Below the pieces are notes generated by a model. It had not been told where the DNA came from and ran no database searches. It was given only the letters and a program-made list of their open reading frames with translations. DNA of 32,000 bases from Cylindrospermopsis raciborskii Cr2010 (lineage in GTDB: Bacteria; Cyanobacteriota; Cyanobacteriia; Cyanobacteriales; Nostocaceae), in contig NZ_CP065936.1 in NCBI RefSeq assembly GCF_003367075.2, forward strand, positions 1,710,001-1,742,000, given 5' to 3'. Shown here one piece after another: positions 1 to 16,690 of this stretch. Numbering within the stretch: position 1 is the first letter of the stretch; the number at the start of each line of letters is the position of its first letter. Both the position numbers and the translations under genes were made by a program.

Positions 1-629
1 ATCTCCGGTATGGCATAGTGTCCTCGCATATTCGCCTTTATTTCTTTGTATCTTTTTCTCTCTAAATGATATACCTCTAGTGTACCCTTAAACCCATTAA
101 ATATGGCATAATATGGTATCTTTACCGCTTGTTCATACACCCAAAACTTCCCCGCTTTTTTTAGTTTCCCGGTTTCTGGATCTATTTCATCCCCTTCTGG
201 TGGAGGGGAACTGTCTTTTTCCTCCTTTCCATTTTTAGACGCGAATTCTATCACTATGAAGGGAGGTACTTTTTCCTTCCATAGCACATATGACCTTCTC
301 AATTGCCCATTTAGTCTGGATGGCACTCCGGGAACATAGAACCAGTCTGGTGCTTCTACCCCTTTTTCTGGAGGATCTGTGAATCGCCAATATATGCCAC
401 TATCCTGTCCTATACAATAGTCTCCGTTGGGATGGATTTTTTTCAGTAATGGTTCAATTGATGTGGTTAATATTATGCTTTGTGGGTGTTCTTGGAAATT
501 TTTCACAAAATCGTCATCGGAGTCCGGTAACTGGGTATGGTCTGGTAGGTCCAGGGGTTCCTCAGGGAGGGTTACATTTTGGGTGGTGGTTGAAGATTGG
601 GGCACGGTAAGAGGGGGTACGGGGTTCAT
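1..629 (-). CDS. Uma2-family (DUF820, PD-(D/E)xK-like) putative endonuclease, tandem copy 1; the 3' part runs off the window
   Basis: Bases 1-629 are colinear with 1043-1677 of copy 2. The start ATG (CAT on + strand) is at 627-629, behind the same GAGGG ribosome-binding site. There is one in-frame 6-nt deletion near 570 and a few substitutions. It is absent from the ORF track, presumably because no stop lies inside the window. Confidence 0.7.
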   Translation of the reverse strand, partial: MNPVPPLTVPQSSTTTQNVTLPEEPLDLPDHTQLPDSDDDFVKNFQEHPQSIILTTSIEPLLKKIHPNGDYCIGQDSGIYWRFTDPPEKGVEAPDWFYVPGVPSRLNGQLRRSYVLWKEKVPPFIVIEFASKNGKEEKDSSPPPEGDEIDPETGKLKKAGKFWVYEQAVKIPYYAIFNGFKGTLEVYHLERKRYKEIKANMRGHYAIPE

Positions 630-756
630 TTTTGCCCTCAGCTAGGGGGATTTAACCTAATTTTAGCAACTGTTTTTGGTTTCGTGTTGTTTTTTTTGAC
701 CGGTGAAATATCTGATAGTTTAGAACCCAACCCGCATTATATTTAGCATAAGGATT

Positions 757-1677: not shown

Positions 1678-1804
1678 TTTTGCCCTCAGCTAAGGGGATT
1701 TAACCTAATTTTAGCAACTATTTTTGGTTTCGTGTTGTTTTTTTTGACCGGGGAAATATCTGATAGTTTGGAACCCAACCCGCATTATATTTAGCATAAG
1801 GATT

Positions 1805-2893
1805 TTATATTTTCTCTGGGTCAATCCCAAGGGAACGTAGATAAGCAGCTAGTTTTTCTTTTTGTTGGCGCTCCTGTTCTTTAGCTTCTCGTTCCTGTTC
1901 TTTAGCTTCTCGTTCCTGTTCTTTAGCCATGCGTTCCTGAGATGCAATAGTTTCTGCTCGCTCTTTAGCTTCTCGTTCCTGTTCTTTAGCCATGCGTTCT
2001 TGAGATGCAATAGTTTCTGCTCGCTCTTTAGCTAGACGCTCTTGAGATGCAATAGTTTCTGCTTGCTCTCTAGCCAGACGCTCTTGAGATGCGATAGTTT
2101 CTGCTTGCTCTTTAGCCAGACGCTCACGAATAGCGATCGCTTCCGCTTGTTCCGCAAGCTCATTTCCTGTCAATAAGAGATTCCCCTTATTATCCCACCA
2201 TCTTAACCACGGTGTGGGTGGTTTCTGGTTGTCATACAGTATTCCCAATTCTATACCCATCTCCGGTATGGCATAGTGTCCTCGCCTATTCGCCTTTATT
2301 TCTTTGTATCTTTTTCTCTCTAAATGATATACCTCTAGTGTACCCTTAAAACCATTAAATATGGCATAATATGGTATCTTTACCGCTTGTTCATACACCC
2401 AAAACTTCCCCGCTTTTTTTAGTTTCCCGGTTTCTGGATCTATTTCATCCCCTTCTGGTGGAGGGGAACTGTCTTTTTCCTCCTTTCCATTTTTAGACGC
2501 AAATTCTATCACTATGAAGGGAGGTACTTTTTCCTTCCATAGCACATATGACCTTCTCAATTGCCCATTTAGCCTGGATGGTACTCCGGGAACATAGAAC
2601 CAGTCTGGTGCTTCTACCCCTTTTTCTGGAGGTTCTGTGAATCGCCAATATATGCCACTATCCTGTCCTATACAATAGTCTCCGTTGGGATGGATTTTTT
2701 TCAGTAATGGTTCAATTGATGTGGTTAATATTATGCTTTGCGGGTGTTCTTGGAAATTTTTCACAAAATCGTCATTGGAGTCCGGTAACTGGGTATGGTC
2801 TGGTAGGTCCAGGGGTTCCTCAGGGAGGGAAGTGGTTACATTTTGGGTGGTGGTTGAAGATTGGGGCACGGTAAGAGGGGGTACGGGGTTCAT
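1805..2893 (-). CDS. Uma2-family putative endonuclease with expanded coiled-coil tail (copy 3, 362 aa)
   Basis: Residues 1-236 match copy 2 except one substitution (P vs Q in PTPWLRWW). The tail carries 7 units of the 42-bp repeat, against 3 in copy 2. Confidence 0.85.
   Translation of the reverse strand: MNPVPPLTVPQSSTTTQNVTTSLPEEPLDLPDHTQLPDSNDDFVKNFQEHPQSIILTTSIEPLLKKIHPNGDYCIGQDSGIYWRFTEPPEKGVEAPDWFYVPGVPSRLNGQLRRSYVLWKEKVPPFIVIEFASKNGKEEKDSSPPPEGDEIDPETGKLKKAGKFWVYEQAVKIPYYAIFNGFKGTLEVYHLERKRYKEIKANRRGHYAIPEMGIELGILYDNQKPPTPWLRWWDNKGNLLLTGNELAEQAEAIAIRERLAKEQAETIASQERLAREQAETIASQERLAKERAETIASQERMAKEQEREAKERAETIASQERMAKEQEREAKEQEREAKEQERQQKEKLAAYLRSLGIDPEKI
1869..2162 (-). repeat. Intragenic 42-bp tandem repeat block, 7 units (copy 3)
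   Basis: 294 bp equals 7 x 42. The block includes 21-bp EREAKEQ subunits and ERAETIASQERMAKEQ variants. The 56-aa length difference from copy 2 is fully explained by 4 extra units. Confidence 0.9.
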
Positions 2894-3020
2894 TTTTGCC
2901 CTCAGCTAAGGGGATTTAACCTAATTTTAGCAACTATTTTTGGTTTCGTGTTGTTTTTTTTGACCGGGGAAATATCTGATAGTTTGGAACCCAACCCGCA
3001 TTATATTTAGCATAAGGATT

Positions 3021-4067
3021 TTATATTTTCTCTGGGTCAATCCCAAGGGAACGTAGATAAGCAGCTAGTTTTTCTTTTTGTTGGCGCTCCTGTTCTTTAG
3101 CTTCTCGTTCCTGTTCTTTAGCCATGCGTTCCTGAGATGCAATAGTTTCTGCTCGCTCTTTAGCTAGACGCTCTTGAGATGCAATAGTTTCTGCTCGCTC
3201 TTTAGCTAGACGCTCTTGAGATGCAATAGTTTCTGCTTGCTCTCTAGCCAGACGCTCTTGAGATGCGATAGTTTCTGCTTGCTCTTTAGCCAGACGCTCA
3301 CGAATAGCGATCGCTTCCGCTTGTTCCGCAAGCTCATTTCCTGTCAATAAGAGATTCCCCTTATTATCCCACCATCTTAACCACGGTGTGGGTGGTTTCT
3401 GGTTGTCATACAGTATTCCCAATTCTATACCCATCTCCGGTATGGCATAGTGTCCTCGCCTATTCGCCTTTATTTCTTTGTATCTTTTTCTCTCTAAATG
3501 ATATACCTCTAGTGTACCCTTAAAACCATTAAATATGGCATAATATGGTATTTTTACCGCTTGTTCGTACACCCAAAACTTCCCCGCTTTTTTTAGTTTC
3601 CCGGTTTCTGGATCTATTTCATCCCCTTCTGGTGGAGGGGAACTGTCTTTTTCCTCCTTTCCATTTTTAGACGCAAATTCTATCACTATGAAGGGAGGTA
3701 CTTTTTCCTTCCATAGCACATATGACCTTCTCAATTGCCCATTTAGCCTGGATGGTACTCCGGGAACATAGAACCAGTCTGGTGCTTCTACCCCTTTTTC
3801 TGGAGGTTCTGTGAATCGCCAATATATGCCACTATCCTGTCCTATACAATAGTCTCCGTTGGGATGGATTTTTTTCAGTAATGGTTCAATTGATGTGGTT
3901 AATATTATGCTTTGTGGGTGTTCTTGGAAATTTTTCACAAAATCGTCATTGGAGTCCGGTAACTGGGTATGGTCTGGTAGGTCCAGGGGTTCCTCAGGGA
4001 GGGAAGTGGTTACATTTTGGGTGGTGGTTGAAGATTGGGGCACGGTAAGAGGGGGTACGGGGTTCAT
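3021..4067 (-). CDS. Uma2-family putative endonuclease with coiled-coil tail (copy 4, 348 aa)
   Basis: The core matches copy 3. The tail carries 6 units of the 42-bp repeat. Confidence 0.85.
   Translation of the reverse strand: MNPVPPLTVPQSSTTTQNVTTSLPEEPLDLPDHTQLPDSNDDFVKNFQEHPQSIILTTSIEPLLKKIHPNGDYCIGQDSGIYWRFTEPPEKGVEAPDWFYVPGVPSRLNGQLRRSYVLWKEKVPPFIVIEFASKNGKEEKDSSPPPEGDEIDPETGKLKKAGKFWVYEQAVKIPYYAIFNGFKGTLEVYHLERKRYKEIKANRRGHYAIPEMGIELGILYDNQKPPTPWLRWWDNKGNLLLTGNELAEQAEAIAIRERLAKEQAETIASQERLAREQAETIASQERLAKERAETIASQERLAKERAETIASQERMAKEQEREAKEQERQQKEKLAAYLRSLGIDPEKI
3085..3336 (-). repeat. Intragenic 42-bp tandem repeat block, 6 units (copy 4)
   Basis: 252 bp equals 6 x 42. The 42-aa excess over copy 2 equals 3 extra units. 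Confidence 0.9.
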
Positions 4068-4194
4068 TTTTGCCCTCAGCTAAGGGGATTTAACCTAATT
4101 TTAGCAACTGTTTTTGGTTTCGTGTTGTTTTTTTTGACCGGGGAAATATCTGATAGTTTGGAACCCAACCCGCATTATATTTAGCATAAGGATT

Positions 4195-5079
4195 TTATAT
4201 TTTCTTCGGGTCAATCCCAAGGGAACGTAGATAAGCAGCTAGTTTTTCTTTTTGTTGGCGCTCCTGTTCTTTAGCTTCTCGTTCCTGAGACGCGATCGCT
4301 TCTGCTCGCTCTTTAGCTTCTCGTTCCTGTTCTTTAGCTAGACGCTCACGAATAGCGATAACTTCCGCTTGTTCTGCACGCTCATTTCCTGTCAATAACA
4401 AGTCCCCCTTATTATCCCACCATCTTAACCACGGTGTGGGTGGTTTCTGGTTGTCATACAGTATTCCCAATTCTATGCCCATCTCCGGTATGGCATAGTG
4501 TCCTCGCCTATTCGCCTTTATTTCTTTGTATCTTTTTCTCTCTAAATGATATACCTCTAGTGTACCCTTAAAACCATTAAATATGGCATAATATGGTATT
4601 TTTACCGCTTGTTCGTACACCCAAAACTTCCCCGCTTTTTTTAGTTTCCCGGTTTCTGGATCTATTTCATCCCCTTCTGGTGGAGGAGAACTGTCTTTTT
4701 CCTCCTTTCCATTTTTAGACGCAAATTCTATCACTATGAAGGGAGGTACTTTTTCCTTCCATAGCACATAAGACCTTCTCAATTGCCCATTTAGTCTGGA
4801 TGGCACTCCGGGAACATAGAACCAGTCTGGTGCTTCTACCCCTTTTTCTGGAGGTTCTGTGAATCGCCAATATATGCCACTATCCTGTCCTATACAATAG
4901 TCTCCATTGGGATGGATTTTTTTCAGTAATGGTTCAATTGATGTGGTTAATATTATGCTTTGCGGGTGTTCTTGGAAATTTTTCACAAAATTGTCATCAG
5001 AGTCTGGTAACTGGGTATGGTCTGGTAGGTTGAAAGGTTCCCTAGGGGGAGTTACATTTTGGGTTGAAGGTTGGGACAC
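4195..5079 (-). CDS. Uma2-family putative endonuclease (copy 5, 294 aa, divergent N-terminus)
   Basis: The core is the same from LPDHTQLPDSD onward. The N-terminus is shorter and different (MSQPSTQNVTPPREPFN), and the tail has 3 repeat units with a different unit composition. Confidence 0.85.
   Translation of the reverse strand: MSQPSTQNVTPPREPFNLPDHTQLPDSDDNFVKNFQEHPQSIILTTSIEPLLKKIHPNGDYCIGQDSGIYWRFTEPPEKGVEAPDWFYVPGVPSRLNGQLRRSYVLWKEKVPPFIVIEFASKNGKEEKDSSPPPEGDEIDPETGKLKKAGKFWVYEQAVKIPYYAIFNGFKGTLEVYHLERKRYKEIKANRRGHYAIPEMGIELGILYDNQKPPTPWLRWWDNKGDLLLTGNERAEQAEVIAIRERLAKEQEREAKERAEAIASQEREAKEQERQQKEKLAAYLRSLGIDPKKI
4259..4384 (-). repeat. Intragenic 42-bp tandem repeat block, 3 units (copy 5)
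   Basis: 126 bp. The unit order (EREAKE-rich) differs from copy 2. HIP1 lies at 4292-4299. Confidence 0.85.
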
Positions 5080-5181
5080 GGTTGGTAAGAGGGGGTTTTC
5101 CCCTCAGCTCAGGGGGATTTAACCTAATTTTAGCAACTTTTTTTAGTTTGGTAATCAGGGGATCTCATTGATCTTCGGGGG

Positions 5182-5205
5182 TTGGGTTGAGAAAACCCAG
5201 CCTAC
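5182..5205. repeat. Variant of the GTTGGGTT..AACCCA..CCTAC hairpin repeat
   Basis: The sequence gTTGGGTTgagaaAACCCAgCCTAC contains a 6-bp stem (TGGGTT/AACCCA). It resembles the core of the dispersed repeat at 18126 and 22491, and lies between the vWA gene stop and the Uma2 array. Confidence 0.4.
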
Positions 5206-5324
5206 AAAGGGGGCTGAAATGTCTTTATCAAGATTAGAACGGACGATTGCGAAGCACTCCCTAGGAGAGATCCCACGGTGTTCAGATTTTAAAAACTATA
5301 TATAAAAACTATATATTAATTTTT

Positions 5325-6731
5325 CTAATCTTTCTGAATCGCATAGCATAAGCTACCAATAAACCATCCTGAATGCTGAGGACTTTTGGCAATTTCGGAT
5401 TGCATAGTTTCCGTTCTAACTTTTAGGGCGGTAAAAAATTCTTGTAAATTATAGGTTTTGGAACCGTCTTCCTCTCCGGTTCTGGTTTGCCAATCCCATT
5501 CTTTCCACCAATTGGGAACCGCTAAGGAAGGAGTATTTAGATCAAACTGTAAGTTATAAATACCCGGTTCAGATAATTTATCAGGTTGGATCACTGCTGC
5601 AAATTTGGCTTGATTTTCTTTGGGCAGAATTTGCCAATCTTTTAATTCTATGGCTGAAATTATTTCTGAATTGCTATCTACCTCTACAAACTTACGATTA
5701 AACCTATCTAACTTTTTACCTTTTATCTGGGCTTGAATCATACTTAGATCTACCAGTAAACTATATTCTGAATGGAGTAAATTCACTGTATAGTTAATGG
5801 TTGAACTCTGCTTTAAAGAAGAATTCAATTTTAGCATTTCCTGGTTGCCTTTGCTAACCGTAACCCCCTCCTTCGCTAGGGCAAAAACTTCAGTAATCCC
5901 CTGTGGTAAGGATATGGGTGTCCCATCTAAAACAGAGATTTTATCCAATACATGATCGGGATGAAAGATCATTAAGTTGCTGTTATCACTATTTAGTAAA
6001 TCCTGGTTTGTATTGTATTTTTTGAGCTGACTAAAGTAGTGCTTAATATCCCCATAGGGTCCGATAAATAATACATAAAATGGACGAAACTTTGCTGGTT
6101 CTTGACCTGTGCTGTAGTTAAAACTTCTTGGATTGTTACCTTCTAAATAAATCTTACCATCAAAGTCACTTTTAATAGCCCAAATTCCTACCGCATAATC
6201 TCGATTCTCAATATTATAATAAGTGTCATTAATTACTTTATTTAGTTTGGTTACGTCTCCACTATTTTGCTGCAAATCAGTAATAATGACAGTCATTTTT
6301 TTCTGCTCCTTTTCTGGGGGAACAATAGCAGCATCTATGGGACTGGAAACTTCTGGAAACTGGTTACTACTGCCATCATAAAATACGGAACTAATTCCAG
6401 AATTGTAGTATTCACTACTGGTAATTTTTTGCATGGGACTACCAATTCGATAATATTCAACTGGTAATTTATCACTTAACTCAAATACATTTCTGATAGA
6501 TCTAAGAGTCTTAACATAATTGGTTTCTCCGCCCTTCACATATCCTAACATGGAGCCACTACCATCTAGGTAAATGCTCACATTGAGATTATTTGATTTA
6601 CTAGTATTAGTATTCTCCACAGGAGTATGGGGAAGTTCGCATTTTAGCTCTTCTTCCTTGTTACAAGCTACTATAAAAAGACTAAGTAACAAGACAATCA
6701 AGCCTTTGCGGAAGTATACTTTGTGTATCAT
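5325..6731 (-). CDS. Predicted lipoprotein with von Willebrand factor A (vWA)-like domain
   Basis: The N-terminus MIHKVYFRKGLIVLLLSLFIVAC has a signal peptide plus a lipobox Cys23 (codon 6663-6665). A MIDAS-like DGSGSM (DxSxS) is encoded at 6549-6566. A downstream MTVIITDLQQ sits in the position of the vWA TDG strand. Confidence 0.7.
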   Translation of the reverse strand: MIHKVYFRKGLIVLLLSLFIVACNKEEELKCELPHTPVENTNTSKSNNLNVSIYLDGSGSMLGYVKGGETNYVKTLRSIRNVFELSDKLPVEYYRIGSPMQKITSSEYYNSGISSVFYDGSSNQFPEVSSPIDAAIVPPEKEQKKMTVIITDLQQNSGDVTKLNKVINDTYYNIENRDYAVGIWAIKSDFDGKIYLEGNNPRSFNYSTGQEPAKFRPFYVLFIGPYGDIKHYFSQLKKYNTNQDLLNSDNSNLMIFHPDHVLDKISVLDGTPISLPQGITEVFALAKEGVTVSKGNQEMLKLNSSLKQSSTINYTVNLLHSEYSLLVDLSMIQAQIKGKKLDRFNRKFVEVDSNSEIISAIELKDWQILPKENQAKFAAVIQPDKLSEPGIYNLQFDLNTPSLAVPNWWKEWDWQTRTGEEDGSKTYNLQEFFTALKVRTETMQSEIAKSPQHSGWFIGSLCYAIQKD

Positions 6732-6933
6732 TTTTAACTCCTATTTGTCAAAACTATTTTATTACTAATTCTATTCTGTCAGCAATATTATTACTGATTA
6801 TAAAATAATATTAAGTAACTTTACCACCAGTTCTATTGCAAATCATAGAGTAGTATGTTAGCATAAGGAAAAATAACCATACTGAGTTTCAACCAAACGA
6901 CAACAGGAACACTACAAAAAATAAGGGGGGTCA
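6732..6933. promoter_or_regulatory. AT-rich divergent intergenic region between the vWA lipoprotein gene (-) and the 4-TM/tubulin-like operon (+)
   Basis: A 202-bp gap separates divergent starts. The direct repeat TTATTACT[AG]ATT occurs at 6759-6770 and 6788-6799. A strong AAGGGGGG Shine-Dalgarno lies at 6923-6930, before the ATG at 6934. No confident -10/-35 assignment was possible. Confidence 0.3.
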
Positions 6934-7407
6934 ATGAGATCGAGGGAAATGATTACAATTATTGTACTCTTCTTAGTTGGTGGCATAGCAATGTTTTGGG
7001 GACAAAAGCTGCTCTATGAGAATCAAATTGTACCTATTCAGCAAATACCAGTAGGTTCTTGGCTGGCTAGTGACTATAATACTGCCGCTATCGTCATGTT
7101 TCTTGCTTGTTTTATTCCAACAGTTATTTGGTGTGCACTAGCAGTTAGGAATCGCTTTAATGATGGAGCTGCTACACTTCGATGGAGATTACTGTGGTGG
7201 TTATTGGGGATAATACCAATGCTGACCATTGCGATCGCGGTTTTTTACATTAATCGGAGTAGCGAAGCCCAACTTTCACTGATTTTCTTTTTTCTGCTGG
7301 ATGCCATCTGGCTATACTGGTTACCAACAGCAACCAGTTCCCCGGAAGCGGTAAAATACATTCCACCTTTCGCCTTTTTCTTGCGTCATAAAATAATGGG
7401 AGACTGA
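6934..7407 (+). CDS. Small integral membrane protein (about 4 TM segments)
   Basis: There are four hydrophobic stretches (ITIIVLFLVGGIAMFW, AAIVMFLACFIPTVIWCALAV, LLWWLLGIIPMLTIAIAVFYI, LSLIFFFLLDAIWLYWL). The stop TGA at 7405-7407 is 6 nt before the next ATG, which suggests translational coupling. An alternative start is the ATG at 6949. Confidence 0.7.
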   Translation: MRSREMITIIVLFLVGGIAMFWGQKLLYENQIVPIQQIPVGSWLASDYNTAAIVMFLACFIPTVIWCALAVRNRFNDGAATLRWRLLWWLLGIIPMLTIAIAVFYINRSSEAQLSLIFFFLLDAIWLYWLPTATSSPEAVKYIPPFAFFLRHKIMGD

Positions 7408-7413
7408 GGATAG

Positions 7414-8910
7414 ATGTCAACTTATATAATTGGAATTGGTGGTACTGGGGCTAAATCCATTGAAGCAATCATTCAATTAACCTCCATTGGGCTCTTTGGG
7501 GAAGAGTCCCTAAAGTTATTGTTTGTGGACACTGATGAAACCAATGGGAATGTCAACAGAGCTTTAGAGAGTTTAGACATATATAATAAATGTTATGAAC
7601 TGGGTTTACAAGGTAAACACCCGTGGATGAAAACAGCGATTCAATCCTTGCCTGTATGGTCACCATTTGCTGATAATGACAATGTTACCAACAAAAACCT
7701 GGCAGTTATTTTTAAATACAATCTGATTAAAGAAAATGATGCACCTCTAGGTAACTTGTTTGATGTACTTTATACATCAAAAGAGCGAGAAGCCAGCTTG
7801 GATGTGGGTTTTAGGGGAAGACCTAGCATTGGGGCGGCGGTGATGAGCCAAGTAAGAATGGATACTGCTGATAATGGTTTTTGGGGAAATTTGATGGGGC
7901 AAATTCAACGGGATGCTGGGGGAGGAAGGCGACCAAAAATCTTTTTATGTGGTTCAATTTTTGGCGGAACAGGAGCTTCAGGACTACCAACCATTGGCAG
8001 ATTAATTCATAATAGACTGGAAACACTAAAAATTAGGGATAACGTAGATTTAGGTTGTCTATTTGTCTTACCTTATTTCAGCTTTACGCCTGAAGAGAAT
8101 CCAGAGGAAGTTTATGCTCGTTCTGAACAGTTTCTTTTAAATACAGAGGCGGCACTCCGTTATTATGGCGGTCAACCTCAGGAAACATTTGACGTAGTCT
8201 ATCTATTGGGCAATCAACAATTATCCCCAGTTAGGAAATTTAGTATAGGTAAAAACACTCAATGTAATGATCCTCACTTTATTGAACTCTATGCTGCATT
8301 GGCTGGGAGAGAATTTTTATTAAACCCCCTAACGGGTGAAAAAAAAGTGGTGTTAATGAACCGAGAAAATCCAAAAATCCTAAACTGGGGGGATATTCCA
8401 GACGATGAGAAAGTACGTGCAGAAATGTTGAAAGCCACCCGTTTTGCCTTTGCTTGGTTATCTAATATTGCCCCAGAATTAAAAAAAGCTAAGGACCTGG
8501 GAGAAAAGGAATTTAGACATCGTGCTGGTACGAGTTGGTTTGTGAAATTCTTCCCAGCTCCCAGAGGAATTTTGGGGGGAGGTAATAAGTCAAATGTTGA
8601 TTTTAATGATGCTGAACAACAAAGAGCAATAGAAAAAATTACCGCTTGGTGTAAGGACTATTTGCGCTGGTTAGGGCATATTCATGAATCGCCAGGGGAA
8701 ACTATTCAATTATTTCACGGAGATCACCTTAGAAATTTGAACGATTATAATTTAGCAAATTTAATATTTGCACAGGCTGACCCTCGAGATAGAAATAAAA
8801 AATCTGAGGACACAATTCAGAAACTCAAAGAAAGTTTAAAACCTGAAAAAATAGACCCTCCAAATTTGGGAACTATTGGTCTAGCCAAATCTTTATATCA
8901 TGTTTGTTGA
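7414..8910 (+). CDS. Tubulin/FtsZ-superfamily-like GTPase (Tubulin_2-type), not housekeeping FtsZ
   Basis: An N-terminal glycine-rich loop IIGIGGTGAK is encoded at 7432-7455. LDVGFRGRPSIGAA sits where a T3-like loop would be. SIFGGTGASGLP is encoded at 7963-7983 and resembles the tubulin/FtsZ signature GGGTG[ST]G, with one G missing at the front and an extra Ala. Confidence 0.7.
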   Translation: MSTYIIGIGGTGAKSIEAIIQLTSIGLFGEESLKLLFVDTDETNGNVNRALESLDIYNKCYELGLQGKHPWMKTAIQSLPVWSPFADNDNVTNKNLAVIFKYNLIKENDAPLGNLFDVLYTSKEREASLDVGFRGRPSIGAAVMSQVRMDTADNGFWGNLMGQIQRDAGGGRRPKIFLCGSIFGGTGASGLPTIGRLIHNRLETLKIRDNVDLGCLFVLPYFSFTPEENPEEVYARSEQFLLNTEAALRYYGGQPQETFDVVYLLGNQQLSPVRKFSIGKNTQCNDPHFIELYAALAGREFLLNPLTGEKKVVLMNRENPKILNWGDIPDDEKVRAEMLKATRFAFAWLSNIAPELKKAKDLGEKEFRHRAGTSWFVKFFPAPRGILGGGNKSNVDFNDAEQQRAIEKITAWCKDYLRWLGHIHESPGETIQLFHGDHLRNLNDYNLANLIFAQADPRDRNKKSEDTIQKLKESLKPEKIDPPNLGTIGLAKSLYHVC

Positions 8911-8970: not shown

Positions 8971-11900
8971 ATGGCTCATTTATTGTTACCCCAACTCAAA
9001 GATGATTGCGATGTTAAATCTGGAACTGCTGGTGTGTGGGATGCCCAAGCACCAACTACCTTTGATCAAGTTGGCACAAGTTTAGATTACGCGGCGCCAG
9101 GGGAAATCAAAAATATAAGTTCTGTGCCTACTATTTGGGCCCGTCCTTTATCAGTAGAAATGGCATTACATAATGATAAATATCCCATTCGGGAACAAAT
9201 TATTGTCCAGTGGCAAGGAATGTTAACAGTTTTGGCTCTAGCTGAAGTGCGGGCATTTCCTATTAAGGCTCAACCTTTAGAATTGGGAGCTAGGAAAGAT
9301 AAAAATCTTTTTGCTCGTTCTCTGTATGAGCTGTTACCAGATGACAGAAATAGTATTTACCAGCTCAATAATAATAAAAATCCCTGGGAAGATTTATATA
9401 TTTTCACCTGGAATAATAACCCTGTGGGGATGACTTCTCCCAGCACCTTAGTTGTCCCATCAGAAGAAGGTATTTGGGATGGTTTACCTTGGTGGAATCC
9501 AATTAAAATGGGATTTGAACCTGTACATGGGTATTTGAATAGCACTGAAAAAGCCCAGTTAGTTTTTTGGTTAAACAACCTCAAAGAGGAAATTGGCAGA
9601 GCTAATGATGGAGAAAGAGATAATACTAAAAAAGCAGTAAATATCATATTTGGACTAATCAATGATTTTATTCGCAGTTTGGGAGTAACATCGGGACTTG
9701 ATTTCCAATTAACCAATAATCAAACATTTTTCGATGTTTCCTTAAACAAGGGAGCTTTATGGGGACTAAATTTTCCCGTAAAGGTGCAACCAAGAGAATC
9801 TAATATTCGGGTTGTTCCTAGCATCAATAAACCCCATGTTAAACCCCTGTTAATCATCGATAGAGATATAGCTAACAGTTGGAATGAGCCATCCCAAAAT
9901 ATTTGGGTTCATGAAGGTAAAACCTTAGCTGCTTTACGCCCTGAAGATATAGAAAAATGGAATAAAAGTAGAGAAGTAATTTGTGTCAAGTCACAAGAGC
10001 TGTTTTTACCCGAATTGAAATTTATTGACCAGGGGGGAATATTACCTAATGCTCTACTTCCTGAAGGTGCCCAATCCCTAACATTTAAAAGTGCGCCTAT
10101 TACACCCTTAATTCCCATTAATCCGATTCTATTGGATTACTTTACTCCAGAATATTTATCTAGCAAAATAGTCGGGTTTCAGATCAATAGAAATGGTGGT
10201 GGCACATCCTTAGTCAAAGTTACATTAACCATACCCTTGTATGGAATTAAGGAAGGGAGAACACCTCAGAATTTCTATGTTTACAAAGAATATCCTCTTT
10301 TAGAGGAAAATATCATTTCCGAAGTTCCTGTGTTAGAAATATGGCCTAATTTCCAGGTGCAGGGATGGAAAGAATACTACGGCTTTTACTACGATGCTGG
10401 TTTAGGAGAAGAAACATTTCAAGTCAGTTTTCCTACTGCTGAAAAAACCCATAGTTTTTCAGAAAAAAATGAAATTTATCAAGTAGCTAAATTGAATGAG
10501 TTTCCATCTTTTCTTAAATGTAAAGATAATTACAAAAACACCATTGGTCTAATTTTATTACCAACTCCACAACCTATCAACCTAGGGGGTCAATGGGTAG
10601 TTGGTGTTGATTTTGGCACATCTTTTACCAATGTCTATGTCAATAAAAATGACAGATTGGTAGAACGTTTAGATCTAGAAAATCTCCACTGTCAAGTTAC
10701 TGATGTTTCTATTGATACTAGATTCCCTGCCTTATTTGAATTTTTCATTCCCGAAAATTTTATCCCTGAAGATAAGCCTTTTCCCCTTTCTACTGTGCTG
10801 ACAACTAAGGGTAAAACTAATGCTGGGGAAGACCAGGTAAGTCCAATTTTGGATGGTCGTATTTATATTCCTGATCTCCAATCGTTTGATCCTGAACAAC
10901 CATGGATAAAAACTAACCTGAAATGGACAACTACTAACCTGACCGCTAACGAACTGTTTCTCAAACATTTGGCATTGCATATTACAGCTTTAGCGGCTAA
11001 GAATGGTGTAAGAGAGATTCAATGGTCTTTATCATTCCCCTCCGCCTTTTCTTCAACAGAACAGAATAGATATATTAAGAGGTGGAGTTTATTAACTGGA
11101 GCATTAGTAGATACTACGGGAATTATCCATAAGACTCCCACAAGAGATGATCCTAATTATTTTAAGACTGAAAGTCTAGCAGTTGGACAATACTTTGCTG
11201 AACAAGAAGGATATGATTTAGTTGGTAGTACTTGTATTGATATGGGCGGTGGGACTTCAGACATTTCTATTTGGCAAGATGATCAACTGCTAGATCAGTG
11301 TTCTATTTTGTTAGCGGGTAGGGAGTTATTTTCCCAGTTTATAGAAATGAACCCTGATTTTTTGAAAAAATTAGATCCAAATATCAAAGACATTAAGGGT
11401 AAGCTCAAGGGTGCTGCTTTCTATGCTAAATTGGATGTTTGGATGCGTTTAGAATCAGCCAATTGGCTAGAAAAGAAAAGAGACAGATTTGAAGAAGATA
11501 GGGAATTTCAAGGACTTATACGTCTGATGGCAATTGGTATTTCTGGGTTATACTTCTATATAGGTCAAATTCTCTCTGTTTTGTCTCAAGAGCAAAAATA
11601 CTCTAGAGATGAAATTACATCGGTTTATATTGGTGGCAATGGCTCTCGTTTATTACACTGGTTAGCAGAAGGTGGTGAATTTAATCGCCATTCAGAAATT
11701 AATGCTTTGTTTAATAAAATGATGAGTATTGCTGCCAAATTACCTCAGACAGACCAACCCACACTTCTAAGTCAAAACCCCAAGGATGAAGCTGCTTGTG
11801 GTTTGGTTTTAAGAGAGAGAAGATTAAGAGGTTTGGGTAGGAATGATAGAGATCCGATTATTGCTGGTGAGGACTGTATTATTAATGGTCAAACTTTTGA

Positions 11901-12231
11901 CTATCACGATCGTTTAAATTTCAGAAGTGATATTAGTACATATCAAATCTCTTTCAATCAGTTGAAATTGTTTTTAAATTCCTTTCATACCAGCCTAGAT
12001 GAACTACGTATTGAGGGTGTGAAACCATTAGAAACCTACCAGGTTAAGGAAAATTTAGATGACCCAGATCCAGACTACAATGCAAAATTGTGGCGTGCAA
12101 CAGAAAGAGAATTGAGAAATGATCTTAATAGTATCCGAGGTAGTATTGAAGATATTAGGCAAGAACCACCTTTTATAATGGCATTAAAAGCTCTTTTGAG
12201 GGTTCTAGGCAAAGAATGGGCCGGAAAGTAA
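8971..12231 (+). CDS. 1086-aa protein: unrecognised N-terminal half plus C-terminal Hsp70/actin-fold (ASKHA) ATPase module
   Basis: Phosphate-1-like VVGVDFGTSFTNV (DFGTS at 10609-10623). Phosphate-2-like CIDMGGGTSDISIW (11239-11262; compare Hsp70 DLGGGTFDVS). Adenosine-motif-like VYIGGNGSRLL (11629-11646; compare Hsp70 LVGGSTRIP). The order and spacing fit the ASKHA fold. Residues 1 to about 540 carry no motif I recognise. Confidence 0.8.
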   Translation: MAHLLLPQLKDDCDVKSGTAGVWDAQAPTTFDQVGTSLDYAAPGEIKNISSVPTIWARPLSVEMALHNDKYPIREQIIVQWQGMLTVLALAEVRAFPIKAQPLELGARKDKNLFARSLYELLPDDRNSIYQLNNNKNPWEDLYIFTWNNNPVGMTSPSTLVVPSEEGIWDGLPWWNPIKMGFEPVHGYLNSTEKAQLVFWLNNLKEEIGRANDGERDNTKKAVNIIFGLINDFIRSLGVTSGLDFQLTNNQTFFDVSLNKGALWGLNFPVKVQPRESNIRVVPSINKPHVKPLLIIDRDIANSWNEPSQNIWVHEGKTLAALRPEDIEKWNKSREVICVKSQELFLPELKFIDQGGILPNALLPEGAQSLTFKSAPITPLIPINPILLDYFTPEYLSSKIVGFQINRNGGGTSLVKVTLTIPLYGIKEGRTPQNFYVYKEYPLLEENIISEVPVLEIWPNFQVQGWKEYYGFYYDAGLGEETFQVSFPTAEKTHSFSEKNEIYQVAKLNEFPSFLKCKDNYKNTIGLILLPTPQPINLGGQWVVGVDFGTSFTNVYVNKNDRLVERLDLENLHCQVTDVSIDTRFPALFEFFIPENFIPEDKPFPLSTVLTTKGKTNAGEDQVSPILDGRIYIPDLQSFDPEQPWIKTNLKWTTTNLTANELFLKHLALHITALAAKNGVREIQWSLSFPSAFSSTEQNRYIKRWSLLTGALVDTTGIIHKTPTRDDPNYFKTESLAVGQYFAEQEGYDLVGSTCIDMGGGTSDISIWQDDQLLDQCSILLAGRELFSQFIEMNPDFLKKLDPNIKDIKGKLKGAAFYAKLDVWMRLESANWLEKKRDRFEEDREFQGLIRLMAIGISGLYFYIGQILSVLSQEQKYSRDEITSVYIGGNGSRLLHWLAEGGEFNRHSEINALFNKMMSIAAKLPQTDQPTLLSQNPKDEAACGLVLRERRLRGLGRNDRDPIIAGEDCIINGQTFDYHDRLNFRSDISTYQISFNQLKLFLNSFHTSLDELRIEGVKPLETYQVKENLDDPDPDYNAKLWRATERELRNDLNSIRGSIEDIRQEPPFIMALKALLRVLGKEWAGK

Positions 12232-12312: not shown

Positions 12313-13110
12313 ATGCAAGATTGTCCTGTATGTGGGTGGAAATATAACAAGTATAATATAAGTATAGAAACAGGTGAGTTTTGTCCACAATGTGGTTGGC
12401 ATTTGTTCCCAGCTCCTCATAATATGAGAGCAGTATCAGGTGAACTACAAACAGTAAAGTGGGCCAGAAAAACCTGGGACAGATTATCTCAATTGCAGAA
12501 GGAATGTTCACTTTTACAGGAAAGAAATCATTCATTACTAAAACAATATTTGGCAAAAATAGAGGATATCCAGGCTAATACTCAGAATTTGCCAGAAATG
12601 CTCAGTATTCTACGGCAAATTAATGAAAAAAGCCAAGAAAAAGACTCTTTCGGTAATCAAACACAAACAACTAGGCCTGGGGATTATGAGGAGGATAAAC
12701 AAGTAAGTAACTATGAAATTGATGACCCAGAAATAACTAGTTTGGTGGAGAATTATAATAATCACGCGGAATTTACAGATAAGATAGATGTTTCTGAAAC
12801 GGAAGAAAGCAAGTCTCATCGTTGGTCTGGTGGCAAAGATCCAGCAATTTTTGAGTTGAATTCCAGAGGTAGGGGAGACTATTGGATTATTGCTAATCAA
12901 TATTTGGTGCCAAAACTCAAGCATAAAATTAATCAGCACAGTTATAAAACTATATCAGTGTTATTTGATTTCCGGAATTATGACGACAATGAGCATGTAA
13001 GTTTAGATGATATGATGCTGGTTAAACCTGCTAAGGTTATCCCTATTCCTAATCAAGAAAAATGGCAATTACAAGACACTGGAATCTTAGAGTTTAAAAC
13101 ACAAATATAA
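12313..13110 (+). CDS. Zinc-ribbon protein with coiled-coil linker and C-terminal shared G-x-LEF domain (paralog 1)
   Basis: I prefer the ATG at 12313, which follows a GGAGG 7 nt upstream, over the track's GTG at 12247. CPVCGW...CPQCGW (12322-12399) gives four Cys in a zinc-ribbon arrangement. The C-terminal domain at 12730-13095 aligns with the three downstream paralogs. Confidence 0.7.
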   Translation: MQDCPVCGWKYNKYNISIETGEFCPQCGWHLFPAPHNMRAVSGELQTVKWARKTWDRLSQLQKECSLLQERNHSLLKQYLAKIEDIQANTQNLPEMLSILRQINEKSQEKDSFGNQTQTTRPGDYEEDKQVSNYEIDDPEITSLVENYNNHAEFTDKIDVSETEESKSHRWSGGKDPAIFELNSRGRGDYWIIANQYLVPKLKHKINQHSYKTISVLFDFRNYDDNEHVSLDDMMLVKPAKVIPIPNQEKWQLQDTGILEFKTQI

Positions 13111-13147
13111 GCCCAAACATAAAAATTAAAAAAACTTATAAAAAACT

Positions 13148-14578
13148 ATGAATAAACTTATGAAACACCACTTTTACCTGACCCTCACATTATCTAGTAT
13201 ATTGCTCTTGGTTTCTCCCGTTCGTGCTGTAGATGATCTGGTGCAAGATCCACCACCGGGTAATATAACTAATATTGCCATAGGTGTCAATCAGCAACAG
13301 AATATCCCAGAAAAATTTGCAGGGTTAAAAAATGCGGTAAGATCCTTCAATCGGAATTTAAAGAATTTTGTTCAAGATAAAAAAGATACTGGAAATTTGA
13401 ACTCTCGTGCGGTTCTTGCCCAAATTAATGACCTAAAGCAGGAGATTGCTACCTTACCTCAAACTCCCCTCTTATCTCCCCCGGTTGCTAGGAGTAATGC
13501 TATCCTTAAAGAACTTGACCGTGCTACCAAATACTTGGAAAATGGATTAGAACCGAAAGGAGTAACTGGAATACAAAAATATTTGGGGTTTTTTGCCAAA
13601 AAAAAAGTAAACAAAAAATATTATGGAAACTTTGGCAAAACAACACAGGAAGAAATAGAGAAATTTACTAATGCAAAAATCCAACAGTTAGAAAAGGAGA
13701 TTACAACCATTCAATCTTTGACTGGTAAAACTGGGATAAAATCAGTAGCAGTATTAAGTACTAACAGTATTAGCAATATCCCAATTTCCTCCACCAAAGT
13801 GGATCCTAAGTCAAATAATAATGAACCCAATAATAATGCGAAAGAACTCGCAGCACTCAAAAGTAGATTAGATGGAATGGAGAAAACAGCAATAATCATA
13901 GGTTTGATCTTTTTCATCGGTATTTTTGTTTGTATATATGTATTGTCTCAAATCATAGGAAATCCAGAAATGATCAAACGACTTAACAGACTTGATCAAT
14001 CTAACAATAATACTATGAAAAAGTTCAATTATTTAGAAACCCAGTTAGAGGTCATACGAGATAAGCAAAAAACTTTAATTGAGAAAATCAATAACTTAAG
14101 TAAATTAGATAGGTTTAATGGTGAGCAAGTTTCAATTCCCGAACCTCCTAAACTACCAGTAGATAAACGTTATCAATCACAAAAATTACCATTCATACCC
14201 AATAATTTGGAAAATCCTATCATTGTACTCTATAACAACAAGGCTAATGTGCTAATTGATAGAGCAATTCCAGTGTCGGAGGCTAAACTTACAGCTTATG
14301 AGCGTCGCTTGGGTCGTTATACTCAACCTGTTTTAGAGGAAACTAGACGGGGTAATTATTGGGTTATCATCGAAGGTACTGTGAACTATCTTGTTCCTAA
14401 ATTTGACATCAGAATTAATAGTCATAATTATAGTACAATATCTCTATTTTTTGAGTGTTTTAAATATGATCACAAGAGCATAAATGATTTTAAGGATTTT
14501 AGACTGATTAGTCCGGCAATAGTTTCCTCAACCGGTGACAAATGGGAGTTAGTTGAACGGGGAGAGTTGGAATTTTAA
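13148..14578 (+). CDS. Single-pass membrane protein: signal peptide, about 210-aa ectodomain, TM, coiled coil and C-terminal shared domain (paralog 2)
   Basis: The signal peptide is MNKLMKHHFYLTLTLSSILLLVSPVRA|VDD and the TM segment is AIIIGLIFFIGIFVCIYVLSQII. The shared domain at 14213-14575 ends in ERGELEF. Confidence 0.75.
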   Translation: MNKLMKHHFYLTLTLSSILLLVSPVRAVDDLVQDPPPGNITNIAIGVNQQQNIPEKFAGLKNAVRSFNRNLKNFVQDKKDTGNLNSRAVLAQINDLKQEIATLPQTPLLSPPVARSNAILKELDRATKYLENGLEPKGVTGIQKYLGFFAKKKVNKKYYGNFGKTTQEEIEKFTNAKIQQLEKEITTIQSLTGKTGIKSVAVLSTNSISNIPISSTKVDPKSNNNEPNNNAKELAALKSRLDGMEKTAIIIGLIFFIGIFVCIYVLSQIIGNPEMIKRLNRLDQSNNNTMKKFNYLETQLEVIRDKQKTLIEKINNLSKLDRFNGEQVSIPEPPKLPVDKRYQSQKLPFIPNNLENPIIVLYNNKANVLIDRAIPVSEAKLTAYERRLGRYTQPVLEETRRGNYWVIIEGTVNYLVPKFDIRINSHNYSTISLFFECFKYDHKSINDFKDFRLISPAIVSSTGDKWELVERGELEF

Positions 14579-14584
14579 CCCATA

Positions 14585-14613
14585 TTTCATACTTCAACCC
14601 AACCTACGTTCAT
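14585..14613. repeat. 3' fragment of the dispersed hairpin repeat
   Basis: TTTCATACTTCAACCCAACCTACGTTCAT is identical to the 3' portion of the copies at 18126-18215 and 22491-22575. The 5' arm (GTTGGG) is missing. Confidence 0.75.
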
Positions 14614-14684
14614 ATTATATTTAATTCCACCCACCCACTTATATATAAACCCAAACATAAAAATGACCAATATGGAACTAACTT

Positions 14685-15644
14685 ATGAAGTACCGTTTGA
14701 AGTACCATTTTTACCTCACCCTCACATTATCTAGCATATTACTGTTGTTTCCCCATGTTCGTGCTGTGGATGATTGGGTGGAATATTTTGACCTAAAGCA
14801 GCGGATTTCTACTTTAAGTAGTAAGATTATTAATAGTAATACTCCAGCACCTGAATCCTTACCCACCAAGGTAGATCCTAAGCCAAATAATAATGCGAAG
14901 GAACTTGCGGAAATTAAAAGTAGATTAGATGAAATGGAAAAAGTCATAATAATGGTGGCTGTGCTATGTTGTGCTGGTATGTTTATTTGTTTATTTGTAT
15001 TATTTCAAGTCACAGAAAATCCAAATTTGATTAAAGACTTTAACATAATTTATCGCTACCATAAGAGTAGTGTGATAAGACTCGATGCTTTGGAAAATCA
15101 ATTACAGGTGGTGCTAGTTAGACAAAAAACCTTAACGGACACAATCAATAACTTAACTAACTCGGATAAGTCTGATGGTGAGCAAGTCTCCCCAATTCCT
15201 CAGCAAATCCCACAAGAAATTCCTCAACCTAAACCACCAACAGATCAACCATATCAAACACCAAAATTAGGACCCAATATTTTTGATAATCCTATAATAG
15301 CACTGTATAATGGCAAAGTTAAGTTGCTAGCTGATATGGTAATTAGAGTATCAGAGGTTAAACTTACAGCTCGCGACCGTCGTTCTGGTCGTTACACTAG
15401 GCCTGTTTTAGAAGAAAACAGACAGGGTAATTATTGGATTATCAATCAACGAAATATGATCTATCTTGTTCCTAAATTTAACATGAGAGTTACTAGTCGT
15501 AATTATGATGCTATATCTGTGTTTTTTGAATGTATTAAATATGATCCCAATAGTAGGAAAAGTTTTAAGTTGATTAATCCAGCAATCGTTTTCTTAAAGG
15601 GTAGTAAATGGGAGCTATTTCAACGGGGAGAGTTAGAATTTTAA
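14685..15644 (+). CDS. Single-pass membrane protein, short-ectodomain paralog of the previous gene (paralog 3)
   Basis: It has the same signal peptide (HFYLTLTLSSILLLFPHVRA|VDD), the same juxtamembrane TKVDPKPNNNAKELAEIKSRLDEMEK and a TM segment VAVLCCAGMFICLFVLFQV. The shared domain at 15288-15641 ends in QRGELEF. Confidence 0.75.
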   Translation: MKYRLKYHFYLTLTLSSILLLFPHVRAVDDWVEYFDLKQRISTLSSKIINSNTPAPESLPTKVDPKPNNNAKELAEIKSRLDEMEKVIIMVAVLCCAGMFICLFVLFQVTENPNLIKDFNIIYRYHKSSVIRLDALENQLQVVLVRQKTLTDTINNLTNSDKSDGEQVSPIPQQIPQEIPQPKPPTDQPYQTPKLGPNIFDNPIIALYNGKVKLLADMVIRVSEVKLTARDRRSGRYTRPVLEENRQGNYWIINQRNMIYLVPKFNMRVTSRNYDAISVFFECIKYDPNSRKSFKLINPAIVFLKGSKWELFQRGELEF

Positions 15645-15712
15645 CCTATAATAATTTTAGCTGGTCTAATTAGTTTTAGTTACGTGGTAATTTAAATAAC
15701 TGGAGTTGGAAA

Positions 15713-16690
15713 ATGGTTAATTCAGATGATATCCTCGCTAGAATTCAAAAGATAGAAAGCTACCTATCTACAGCTGATGCAAGAAACAATGGCCCGGTCA
15801 TGGTTACTGGTGCTTGTAATATGGAAAAAATTATTCCCGTAAATATCTCGGAAGAGGAAATAATAGAAGTTTATAATGAAGTACCCGGGGTTTTACTCAG
15901 AAACTCAATTGTTACACAGTTAACTGATGCAAGTTATCGGGATGGAGACCAGCCCATTATTTTACAACCCGATGACTATGGTAAGTATTGGTTAATTGTC
16001 TCGGATGAAGATAACATTTTTGTTATACCCTCTATTGAGGTTAAGTCTTATATTTATAGACTAAAAAGCATGGCTAAAGTATTTGATTTTCAGGGTGGTA
16101 GTCCTTCTACAGATAATCATTATTTATTAATTAAACCCGCAAGATTCCAGACTTTACCCAGTGGAAGGGAATGGAAAATGGAGGAAAAGGGGATTTTAGA
16201 GTTTACTAATCATGGTGGAAAAGATTCACTGGCTAAATCTTTGCACAAGTCTATACAGAATAATCAGACAAATACCAATTCGGAAATCTCGAAAATTCAT
16301 CAGGAGTTAAATAAGATAAAATCTCAATTAGAACATATTTCTTCCCAGGGAGACTGGCAAGCTTCTATATCCGAAATAAGAGACAATCAAGCAAATACCA
16401 ATTTGGAACTCATGAGAGCTAATCAACAATTAGACCGACAGTTAAATGAGATAAAATCTCAATTAGAACAAGTTACCCCCCAGGAAGATTGGCAATCTCT
16501 TATTTGGGAAATAAGAGATAATCAAGCAAATACCAATTTGGAACTCAGGAGAGCTAATCGACAGTTAGACCGTCAATTAAATGATATTAGCTCCCAACTG
16601 GAGCAGTTGAGATCCCAAGATATTAGACTCCAAATAGATTTACTCAGGGTACGCTTAGAATCTTTAGAGAGCAGGTCAAGTAGAGATTAA
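15713..16690 (+). CDS. Soluble protein with N-terminal shared domain followed by 45-aa coiled-coil repeats (paralog 4)
   Basis: The shared domain at 15851-16204 (…GKYWLIVSDEDNIFVIPS…LLIKPARF…EWKMEEKGILEF) aligns with the C-termini of paralogs 1-3. A Q/N/L-rich repeat region follows. Confidence 0.75.
   Translation: MVNSDDILARIQKIESYLSTADARNNGPVMVTGACNMEKIIPVNISEEEIIEVYNEVPGVLLRNSIVTQLTDASYRDGDQPIILQPDDYGKYWLIVSDEDNIFVIPSIEVKSYIYRLKSMAKVFDFQGGSPSTDNHYLLIKPARFQTLPSGREWKMEEKGILEFTNHGGKDSLAKSLHKSIQNNQTNTNSEISKIHQELNKIKSQLEHISSQGDWQASISEIRDNQANTNLELMRANQQLDRQLNEIKSQLEQVTPQEDWQSLIWEIRDNQANTNLELRRANRQLDRQLNDISSQLEQLRSQDIRLQIDLLRVRLESLESRSSRD
16253..16645 (+). repeat. Intragenic tandem repeat, about three units (41, 45 and 45 aa; 135-bp period)
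   Basis: The units start at 16253, 16376 and 16511. Units 2 and 3 both begin IRDNQANTNLEL[MR]RAN[QR]QLDRQLN[ED]I and are highly similar at the nucleotide level. Confidence 0.85.

Follow-up and report, generated by a model that had tools for sequence, protein, structure and literature searches.

An apparently new cyanobacterial domain family shared by accessory proteins of a tubulin-like/actin-like operon

Four consecutive genes of Cylindrospermopsis raciborskii Cr2010, here named A to D, were confirmed by sequence comparison to share one homologous domain of about 120 amino acids (aa), which we call X. The genes lie on a stretch of 32,000 nucleotides (nt; contig NZ_CP065936.1, positions 1,710,001 to 1,742,000 of the forward strand), which was analysed over its whole length and is referred to below as the window. 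The comparisons indicate that X is a genuine, previously unannotated and essentially cyanobacterial domain family, and that it marks the accessory subunits of an uncharacterised operon encoding a tubulin-like and an actin-like protein. The best-supported interpretation is that X would act as a cytoplasmic, non-enzymatic protein–protein assembly module dedicated to this single operon type.

RESULTS

One domain in four consecutive gene products

X is located at the C-terminus of A (gene at 12313–13110; X at aa 140–261, nt 12730–13095), of B (13148–14578; aa 356–476, nt 14213–14575) and of C (14685–15644; aa 202–319, nt 15288–15641), and near the N-terminus of D (15713–16690; aa 47–164, nt 15851–16204). 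All four open reading frames (ORFs) were confirmed, on the + strand, at the coordinates assigned to them by an earlier reading made from the nucleotide sequence without database searches (the sequence-only reading), and the limits which that reading had proposed for a domain common to the four products were reproduced by the profile envelopes in A, B, C and D (E = 1.5e-51 for the copy in A). Alignment, BLASTP and leave-one-out profile searches all agree on the existence of this domain. The MAFFT alignment of the four copies contains 18 invariant columns, including Y-N, G-x-Y-W, P, F, L..PA, W and G-x-LEF. BLASTP between the domains gave 36.6–62 bits for the cross-pairs among A, B, C and D and 149 bits for B and C, whose copies are 61–62% identical. 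When a profile of three copies was compared with the fourth, the scores were 72 bits for A, 119 for B, 120 for C and 35 (34.9) for D, the most divergent copy, as against 15, 8, 9 and 6 bits (≤5.9 for D), respectively, for the best of 1000 composition-matched shuffles. Since scores of 35–120 bits stand against at most 15 bits for shuffled sequences, the similarity is not due to compositional bias. A profile search of the window ORFs found no further copy of X in any other ORF.

The region is AT-rich (GC content 0.34–0.37) and the proteins contain low-complexity polar linkers, which would be in keeping with a similarity arising from chance or composition, or with ORFs that are not genes. The probability of such an artefact is vanishingly small, and the idea is already refuted: in addition to the leave-one-out scores, X has hundreds of independent homologues and a confident AlphaFold2 fold, many Cylindrospermopsis and Raphidiopsis genomes carry annotations of these very proteins, and the ratio of non-synonymous to synonymous substitution rates (dN/dS) between orthologues is below 1.

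Conservation and predicted fold of X

The sequence-only reading had described the domain as unrecognised, and this description holds for the family as well as for the window. Pfam-A, NCBIfam and PADLOC contained no match over X in the four proteins, Pfam gave no consistent family among 66 diverse copies, and a newer precomputed Pfam annotation shows only a dash for the X genes of related loci. Profile searches for the four proteins and for the 66 diverse copies had no match among PDB sequences at E ≤ 10. The AlphaFold model of X reached a pLDDT of 78.6 with the four-sequence alignment, and a pLDDT of 94.6 with a pTM of 0.87 when 66 sequences were aligned. The fold predicted for the copy of B is of the alpha+beta type and comprises a helix, a strand, a helix, three strands, a helix, a strand and a four-stranded C-terminal meander. 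A Foldseek search with the model of pLDDT 94.6 retrieved no similar chain from the PDB (best E 1.1, TM ≤0.27) and nothing similar among the viral models of BFVD (best E 0.5).

Only Y7 and G117 are identical in all 66 copies; G47, L60, F80, W111 and F121 are conserved in at least 90%. The terminal motif G-x-LEF is present in this form in the four window copies; family-wide it reads G-x-L-x-F, with an invariant G, an F conserved in at least 90% of copies and a variable E. Other conserved positions are aromatic or basic (Y-N, G-x-Y-W, P-K, K-I-N, K-P-A and W), and no conserved polar residues of catalytic type were found in the 66 copies.

Several apparent affinities were rejected. A flag for PF26755 on protein P0331 was a spurious one, corresponding to a weak PTPRO_N match on a coiled-coil-rich protein and not to an existing X family. 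Kinship with PH-like (YcxB) domains was hinted at by 3 of the 66 copies, at E 0.018, and found no support in Foldseek. The alpha-beta-beta-beta-alpha-beta core could be read as PD-(D/E)xK-like; the relevant acidic and lysine positions are not family-wide, and Foldseek again gave no match.

Architecture and topology of the four proteins

Protein A consists of an N-terminal zinc ribbon (CPVC...CPQC, aa 4–27, nt 12322–12393), a polar linker and X. The ribbon is assigned from its cysteine pattern; a CxxC...CxxC N-terminus is also present in A-type orthologues and library matches, and Pfam zinc-ribbon matches are weak. Protein B comprises a signal peptide or anchor (aa 10–28), a predicted periplasmic region, a transmembrane (TM) helix (aa 248–266, nt 13889–13945), a coiled coil and X, as judged from hydropathy and a heptad scan; in a B-type relative, P0302, the region equivalent to the predicted periplasmic part matches PG_binding_1. 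Protein C is a shorter version of the same design, with a TM helix at aa 87–105. Both proteins have an N-terminal hydrophobic leader, which scores above the hydropathy threshold in B alone, and BLASTP aligned them at 50% identity over 292 aa spanning signal peptide, TM helix, coiled coil and X. Protein D has a short N-terminus, X and a long coiled coil, the last recognised by weak Pfam matches and the heptad scan. Its coiled coil carries a 45-aa tandem duplication (nt 16305–16584, period 135 nt, 2.1 copies, 86% matches).

The fusions of X to a zinc ribbon, twice to signal-peptide/TM proteins and to a coiled coil were thus all recovered in A, B/C and D. The four different architectures of the sequence-only reading reduce to three, because B and C are paralogues along these 292 aa. 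Since the leader of B and C would lie outside and is followed by one TM helix, X is predicted to be cytoplasmic in both; A and D, in which hydropathy revealed no hydrophobic segment, are presumably cytoplasmic too.

Distribution of X

An exhaustive HMMER search of 1.84 billion proteins, a kind of search suggested in the sequence-only reading, recovered 981 cluster representatives with E ≤ 1e-3; E-values of 1e-10 or lower were reached by 596 of them, and of 1e-30 or lower by 80. A word-indexed search with the four-copy profile had given a single fragment; the 981 matches overturned the idea of an orphan domain. Named members are cyanobacterial, the sole exception being a 2.2-kb contig binned as Poribacteria, and X was absent from the phage collections searched. 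Recurring designs among the 149 best matches are zinc ribbon plus X, leader/TM plus X, X-linker-X with up to four copies, and a short N-terminus followed by X and a long C-terminus; about 40% of these matches hold more than one copy (2–4 per chain). The domain is always terminal or tandem. Its partners are a zinc ribbon, a signal peptide with TM helix, a coiled coil, a WD40 propeller, a second actin-like protein (ASKHA2, see below) or further X domains, and X is the sole element common to subunits that differ in predicted location and partner module. One member, a protein of 162 aa, is encoded at the end of a JGI metagenome contig (L008, 1–10489), where a 204-aa ORF precedes it and genes for a DEAD/MZB helicase and a UvrD-like helicase lie near by.

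A conserved operon context

The neighbours of X genes, whose recording had also been proposed, were compared in 20 non-redundant operon loci of other species (L001, L003–L007, L010–L016, L018, L020–L023 and a plasmid operon, L024/L025), leaving out duplicate fetches (L002, the operon of L001; L017, the contig of L004; L019, the contig of P0171). The tubulin-like/actin-like operon is present, fully or partly, in all of them. In 20 out of 20, the X genes form a run of 2–7 paralogues directly downstream of a conserved set encoding a divergent lipoprotein, a protein with four TM helices (4-TM protein), a tubulin-like protein of ~500 aa and an actin/Hsp70-fold protein of ~1090 aa; the set is partial in three loci (L007, L015 and L016). 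Eight relatives, from Sphaerospermopsis to Merismopedia, Symploca, Aphanothece and Calothrix, were reached from the tubulin-like gene (L001–L006, L022 and L023) and represent seven distinct operons, each with the full set followed by 3–6 X genes and with no X elsewhere in the 20-kb loci. Starting from X, a scan of GTDB genomes placed 12 of 12 loci, in 12 cyanobacterial records, inside the same operon type; the scan used a B-type pattern from a narrow alignment and is biased to B-type copies. L007 was likewise fetched starting from an X protein.

The usual order of X genes is A (zinc ribbon), B (membrane), E (X-linker-X), sometimes ASKHA2, and then a D-type gene; the window operon has C in place of an E gene. 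ASKHA2 is a second actin-like paralogue, which matches residues ~277/330–1086 of the main protein and lacks its N-terminal ~275–330 aa. D-type genes combine an N-terminal X with a variable C-terminus. In Nostocales this is a coiled coil; Microcoleus, Calothrix UHCC 0171 and Gloeothece have a WD40 propeller there, and Merismopedia has ASKHA2. The D-type protein of Aphanothece probably carries WD40, a call taken from precomputed annotation of a gene cut by the end of the locus. The X-ASKHA2 fusion was seen only in Merismopedia glauca (L005), where X takes the place of the missing N-terminal region. An X protein is encoded just upstream of ASKHA2 in L004 and in L024; in the latter (Gloeothece) the separate X gene overlaps the start of ASKHA2, and in Richelia a gap of 3 bp separates the E gene from ASKHA2.

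Several operons depart from this organization. Deletions in Limnofasciculus (L007, 3719–10594) and Aulosira (L016, 6826–12368) have removed the tubulin-like gene together with the N-terminal half of the actin-like one, and the X genes there are still intact and open. In Raphidiopsis brookii D9 (L011, 2993–7801), two ORFs take the place of the tubulin-like gene and another two that of the actin-like gene; these splits could be pseudogenes or errors of an old assembly. Gene C is absent from this locus. Some operons additionally contain a gene for a periplasmic-binding protein (Peripla_BP_6). A full operon resides on the 47.5-kb mobilizable plasmid Cy782204 (NC_014503.1) of Gloeothece verrucosa PCC 7822, wrapping around the origin of the record (37627–47534 and 8–8020); it includes ASKHA2, a periplasmic-binding-protein gene and an X-WD40 gene, and adjoins TIR-domain and WD40 genes, an integrase and TnpB.

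Old types and homogenised copies

In Nostocales, each copy of X is nearest to the same type in other genomes (57–95% identity) and only 28–51% identical to its neighbours; the A, B, D and E types are orthologous there, and adjacent copies are not closest to each other. Copies within one operon are 61–87% identical in Merismopedia, Symploca, Microcoleus, Calothrix UHCC 0171, Aphanothece, Trichodesmium and for B and C of the window, and adjacent copies are closer than orthologues in L005, L006, L020, L021, L022, L023 and, again, B/C. The most elaborate case is that of M. glauca (L005, 14845–21487), where a three-copy E protein is directly followed by the X-ASKHA2 fusion gene: the three copies of E match, in order, the copies of the fusion (53%), of A (87%) and of B (70%).

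The homogenised pairs have synonymous divergences (dS) of 0.13–0.5 and dN/dS of 0.3–0.5, the 53% pair of Merismopedia being an exception (dS ~2.0, dN/dS 0.17). For the copies of B and C dS is 0.52, which marks their duplication as fairly recent. The similarity of homogenised pairs also runs into the adjacent coiled-coil linkers and, taken together with the low dS, shows that these are segmental duplications or gene conversions of recent date. The idea that matched X pairs have co-evolved over a long time was rejected on these grounds. Since intragenomic copies have repeatedly been homogenised, the swapping of X between subunits is evidently tolerated.

Other products of the operon and neighbouring genes

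In the window, the + strand operon starts with the gene of the 4-TM protein (157 aa, 6934–7407, predicted from hydropathy), which has the same position in related loci. It is followed by the genes for the tubulin-like protein (498 aa, 7414–8910), the giant actin/Hsp70-fold (ASKHA-like) protein (1086 aa, 8971–12231) and A to D, with intergenic gaps of 6–106 bp. Co-transcription of the seven + strand genes between 6934 and 16690 is plausible, as no terminator-like site was found on the + strand between 7515 and 17015 in a scan for promoters and terminators, which was otherwise uninformative. For six window proteins that were looked up, identical sequences exist in Cylindrospermopsis/Raphidiopsis raciborskii-type genomes, annotated as hypothetical.

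The tubulin-like protein has a GGTG-type motif and matches Pfam Tubulin_2 exactly at the cut-off (27.0 bits) over aa 168–231 only. It has more than 1200 homologues, named 'FtsZ/tubulin family protein' in some sources, and the window copy is 70% identical to that of Sphaerospermopsis and ~54% to that of Merismopedia. Its C-terminus (window positions 8730–8910) consists of a variable charged linker and a conserved peptide, PPNLGTIGLAKSLYHVC, in which P483, G486, G489, L490, A491, Y495 and C498 are invariant (alignment A6). This layout recalls FtsZ, whose C-terminal peptide binds partners.

The actin-like protein stays below the threshold of every family searched; its weak matches to FtsA/MreB lie at aa 751–789. 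Its motifs DFGTS, DMGGGTSD and GGNGS, invariant in alignment A5, can be read as the phosphate-1, phosphate-2 and adenosine motifs of the ASKHA superfamily. The C-terminal ~22 aa, EPPFIMALKALLRVLGKEWAGK, hardly vary, have a mildly amphipathic character and may form a membrane-binding helix.

On the opposite strand, a divergent lipoprotein of 468 aa (5325–6731, − strand) has an orthologue beside the operon in the loci examined. Its DGSGSM motif is of the DxSxS, MIDAS-like type, with D56, S60, T151 and D152 invariant in alignment A7. The protein may represent a very divergent von Willebrand factor A (vWA) domain; it has no match to a Pfam or vWA profile or in the PDB. Searches of PDB sequences with the tubulin-like, actin-like and lipoprotein products and with their profiles gave nothing useful. 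A cryptic copy of X in these three was also sought and rejected: hhalign of X against their alignments found no X-like module (probability ≤0.4%).

Further upstream, four tandem paralogues on the − strand (757–5079; 306, 362, 348 and 294 aa) contain an Uma2-family restriction-endonuclease-like domain and are spaced by 128 bp. Three of these genes (757–1677, 1805–2893 and 3021–4067) have 42-nt (14-aa) repeats of variable copy number near their 3′ end.

DISCUSSION

What X may do

If X is an assembly module, its binding partner could be X itself. We regard it as a serious, though tentative, possibility that X domains bind one another and thereby build a scaffold uniting the subunits. The X domains of the A, B/C, D-type and E subunits would then interact, homotypically or heterotypically, and these contacts would form a scaffold beneath the inner membrane. 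The module attached to this scaffold would differ from one subunit to the next: a zinc ribbon, a periplasmic region with TM helix, a coiled coil, WD40 propeller or ASKHA2, or more X domains. The products of the two upstream genes, an actin-like ATPase and a tubulin-like GTPase, would engage or remodel the structure. We tilt slightly towards this interpretation because of the many paralogues and tandem arrays, the tolerated exchange of X between subunits and the survival of X genes where the tubulin-like gene is gone. Multiple paralogues and tandem copies are typical of domains that co-assemble, for example microcompartment shell proteins. Several observations weigh against binding between X domains, or at least do not require it. 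The homogenised segments may represent neutral segmental duplication instead of selection for matched pairs; the old orthologous types of Nostocales would also suit distinct heterotypic partners; and the linkage of X to the operon fits docking on the core nucleoside triphosphatases (NTPases) equally well. In addition, upstream of the metagenomic X gene (L008/L009), the available 10 kb contain no tubulin-like or actin-like gene.

Docking on the core is the model of the sequence-only reading, which saw in X an adaptor that plugs different modules into a GTPase/ATPase pair. Every X would bind one common site on a core protein. This might be the conserved peptide that ends the tubulin-like protein, by a presumed analogy with the FtsZ C-terminal peptide, or the first ~275 aa of the actin-like protein. 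A tubulin-like/actin-like polymer would in this way be equipped with zinc-ribbon, membrane, coiled-coil and WD40 modules, and tandem X would allow multivalent binding to the filament. The strict adjacency of X genes to the pair and the variety of fusions, including one to an actin-like paralogue, are consistent with an adaptor. So are the conserved tubulin-like peptide behind its variable charged linker and the persistence of old orthologous X types in Nostocales. A further point in favour is ASKHA2, which lacks the N-terminal ~275–330 aa and has X fused in that place (L005) or encoded just upstream (L004, L024). Nevertheless, the X genes of L007 and L016 are intact despite the loss of the tubulin-like gene and of the N-terminal half of the actin-like protein, which argues against obligate docking on the tubulin-like protein. 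Profile–profile comparison detected no X-like module in the core proteins and hence gives no hint of a matching surface. Tandem X and X genes that outlive the tubulin-like gene fit association between X domains at least as well. The adaptor idea of the sequence-only reading is thus supported in part, and we rate docking on the core as somewhat less likely than binding between X domains.

Two further explanations appear less attractive. The operon might be a conflict system of the anti-phage or abortive-infection type, with X coupling modules to an NTPase core in the manner of effector-associated domains (EADs), whose logic is alike in that small non-enzymatic terminal domains occur in copies on adjacent genes with variable partners (PMC7159879). 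The plasmid-borne operon beside TIR-domain and WD40 genes, the variable set of X genes, dN/dS of 0.4–0.5 in recently exchanged copies and the four Uma2-family genes upstream in the window would all agree with such a role. Yet PADLOC gave no match, no recognisable toxic effector is present in any operon examined, where the partners are zinc ribbon, TM helix, coiled coil, WD40 and ASKHA2, and the core components of the window carry no copy of X. Furthermore, the identity of the tubulin-like protein drops roughly with taxonomic distance, which suggests vertical inheritance, X is missing from phage collections, and conflict systems with tubulin and HSP70 need a DO-GTPase and GAP1 and are near-absent in cyanobacteria (PMC7159879). 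Support for a conflict system is circumstantial, and we consider it an improbable explanation. Alternatively, X could be a sensor that binds a small molecule, a nucleic acid or a lipid head group and delivers the same input to several subunits. The conserved aromatic and basic positions (Y-N, G-x-Y-W, P-K, K-I-N, K-P-A and W) could serve this purpose, and the Peripla_BP_6 gene of some operons hints at sensing within the system. Against this, the most conserved residues are mainly glycine and large hydrophobic or aromatic ones, as expected for a structural core, X resembles no known ligand-binding family or fold, and tandem arrays of 2–4 copies with purely structural fusion partners would be unusual for sensors. 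We deem a sensory role, which has little support, improbable as well.

Significance

It is tempting to go beyond the assembly module and to view the X operon as a new envelope-spanning, tubulin-plus-actin machine of cyanobacteria with its own adaptor family, X being a new fold and the building block. We put this forward as a doubtful proposition. If true, subunits that join X to zinc-ribbon, bitopic-membrane, coiled-coil or WD40 parts would come together beneath the inner membrane, where a short tubulin-like GTPase and a giant membrane-associated actin-fold ATPase would act on them, and the ectodomains of B and C together with the vWA-like lipoprotein would connect the assembly to the periplasm and peptidoglycan. 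Few examples are known from bacteria in which genes for a tubulin-like and an actin-like NTPase lie together with those of a dedicated accessory set. The operon is conserved in filamentous and unicellular cyanobacteria, and none of its ~8 products has a solved or characterised relative; no experimental study of it was found in the literature. With ~1000 representative proteins, X offers a searchable marker of the system and a parts list with predicted topology, and whether it binds X or the core is a concrete binary question. In database curation, hundreds of proteins now entered as 'hypothetical' could be renamed after the new family.

Comparison with known systems

Adaptor and anchor proteins are known for bacterial cytoskeletal filaments: FtsA, ZipA and SepF act at the C-terminal peptide of FtsZ, and MamJ acts on MamK. 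The X operon resembles these systems in placing membrane-anchored and coiled-coil accessory proteins beside a tubulin-like and an actin-like NTPase, and in the conserved C-terminal peptide of the tubulin-like protein. It differs in that 3–7 X paralogues share one domain, often in tandem, whereas those adaptors are not known to have a common domain; filaments and binding are putative for the X operon. Co-assembling paralogues of ~100 aa encoded in one operon are known from the BMC-domain shell proteins, including tandem BMC-T. X likewise occurs as several one-domain paralogues per operon with tandem-fused forms, but it has no sequence or Foldseek similarity to BMC domains, it is usually attached to long non-X regions, and an X lattice is purely hypothetical.

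With regard to the core proteins, the FtsZl1/vWA operons are relevant, in which a divergent tubulin/FtsZ protein coexists with normal FtsZ and for which a membrane-remodelling role has been proposed from context only (PMC2875224). These share with the X operon a divergent tubulin-like protein coexisting with normal FtsZ (Tubulin_2 is PF13809), an adjoining membrane-associated DxSxS protein and lineage-specific membrane proteins of unknown function. However, the cyanobacterial FtsZl1 proteins listed by Makarova and Koonin (2010) have 900–1130 aa and vWA (COG2304), B7 and OmpA neighbours (PMC2875224), whereas the tubulin-like gene here encodes ~500 aa and precedes the genes for a 1086-aa actin-fold protein and for the X proteins. 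That list has only Tery_1707 and omits the Trichodesmium orthologue of the X operon, and the X domain is not described there.

Tubulin and HSP70 also occur in DO-GTPase/GAP1 systems, described as 'nearly completely absent in cyanobacteria' (PMC7159879); Pfam and NCBIfam searches found no P-loop GTPase (the DO-GTPase being a TRAFAC P-loop enzyme) or other matching family among the products of the X operon. The same work (Kaur, Burroughs, Iyer and Aravind 2020, eLife, PMC7159879) defined EAD1–10 as domains of NTPase-centred conflict systems and proposed them as coupling adaptors. The first feature of an EAD is missing in X, since no copy is on a core component here, nor in most operons. Its partners are structural modules and not enzymatic effectors or signalling domains, it matches no Pfam family, it is limited to a single operon type, and its copies in Nostocales are old orthologous types and not lineage-specific. 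Conversely, X and EADs are both small, non-enzymatic and terminal, and both occur in several copies in adjacent genes with diverse partners; in some genomes X is even found on a paralogue of a core NTPase (X-ASKHA2), and neighbouring copies are sometimes closer to each other than to orthologues. Among the systems compared, EADs are the closest counterpart of X in logic.

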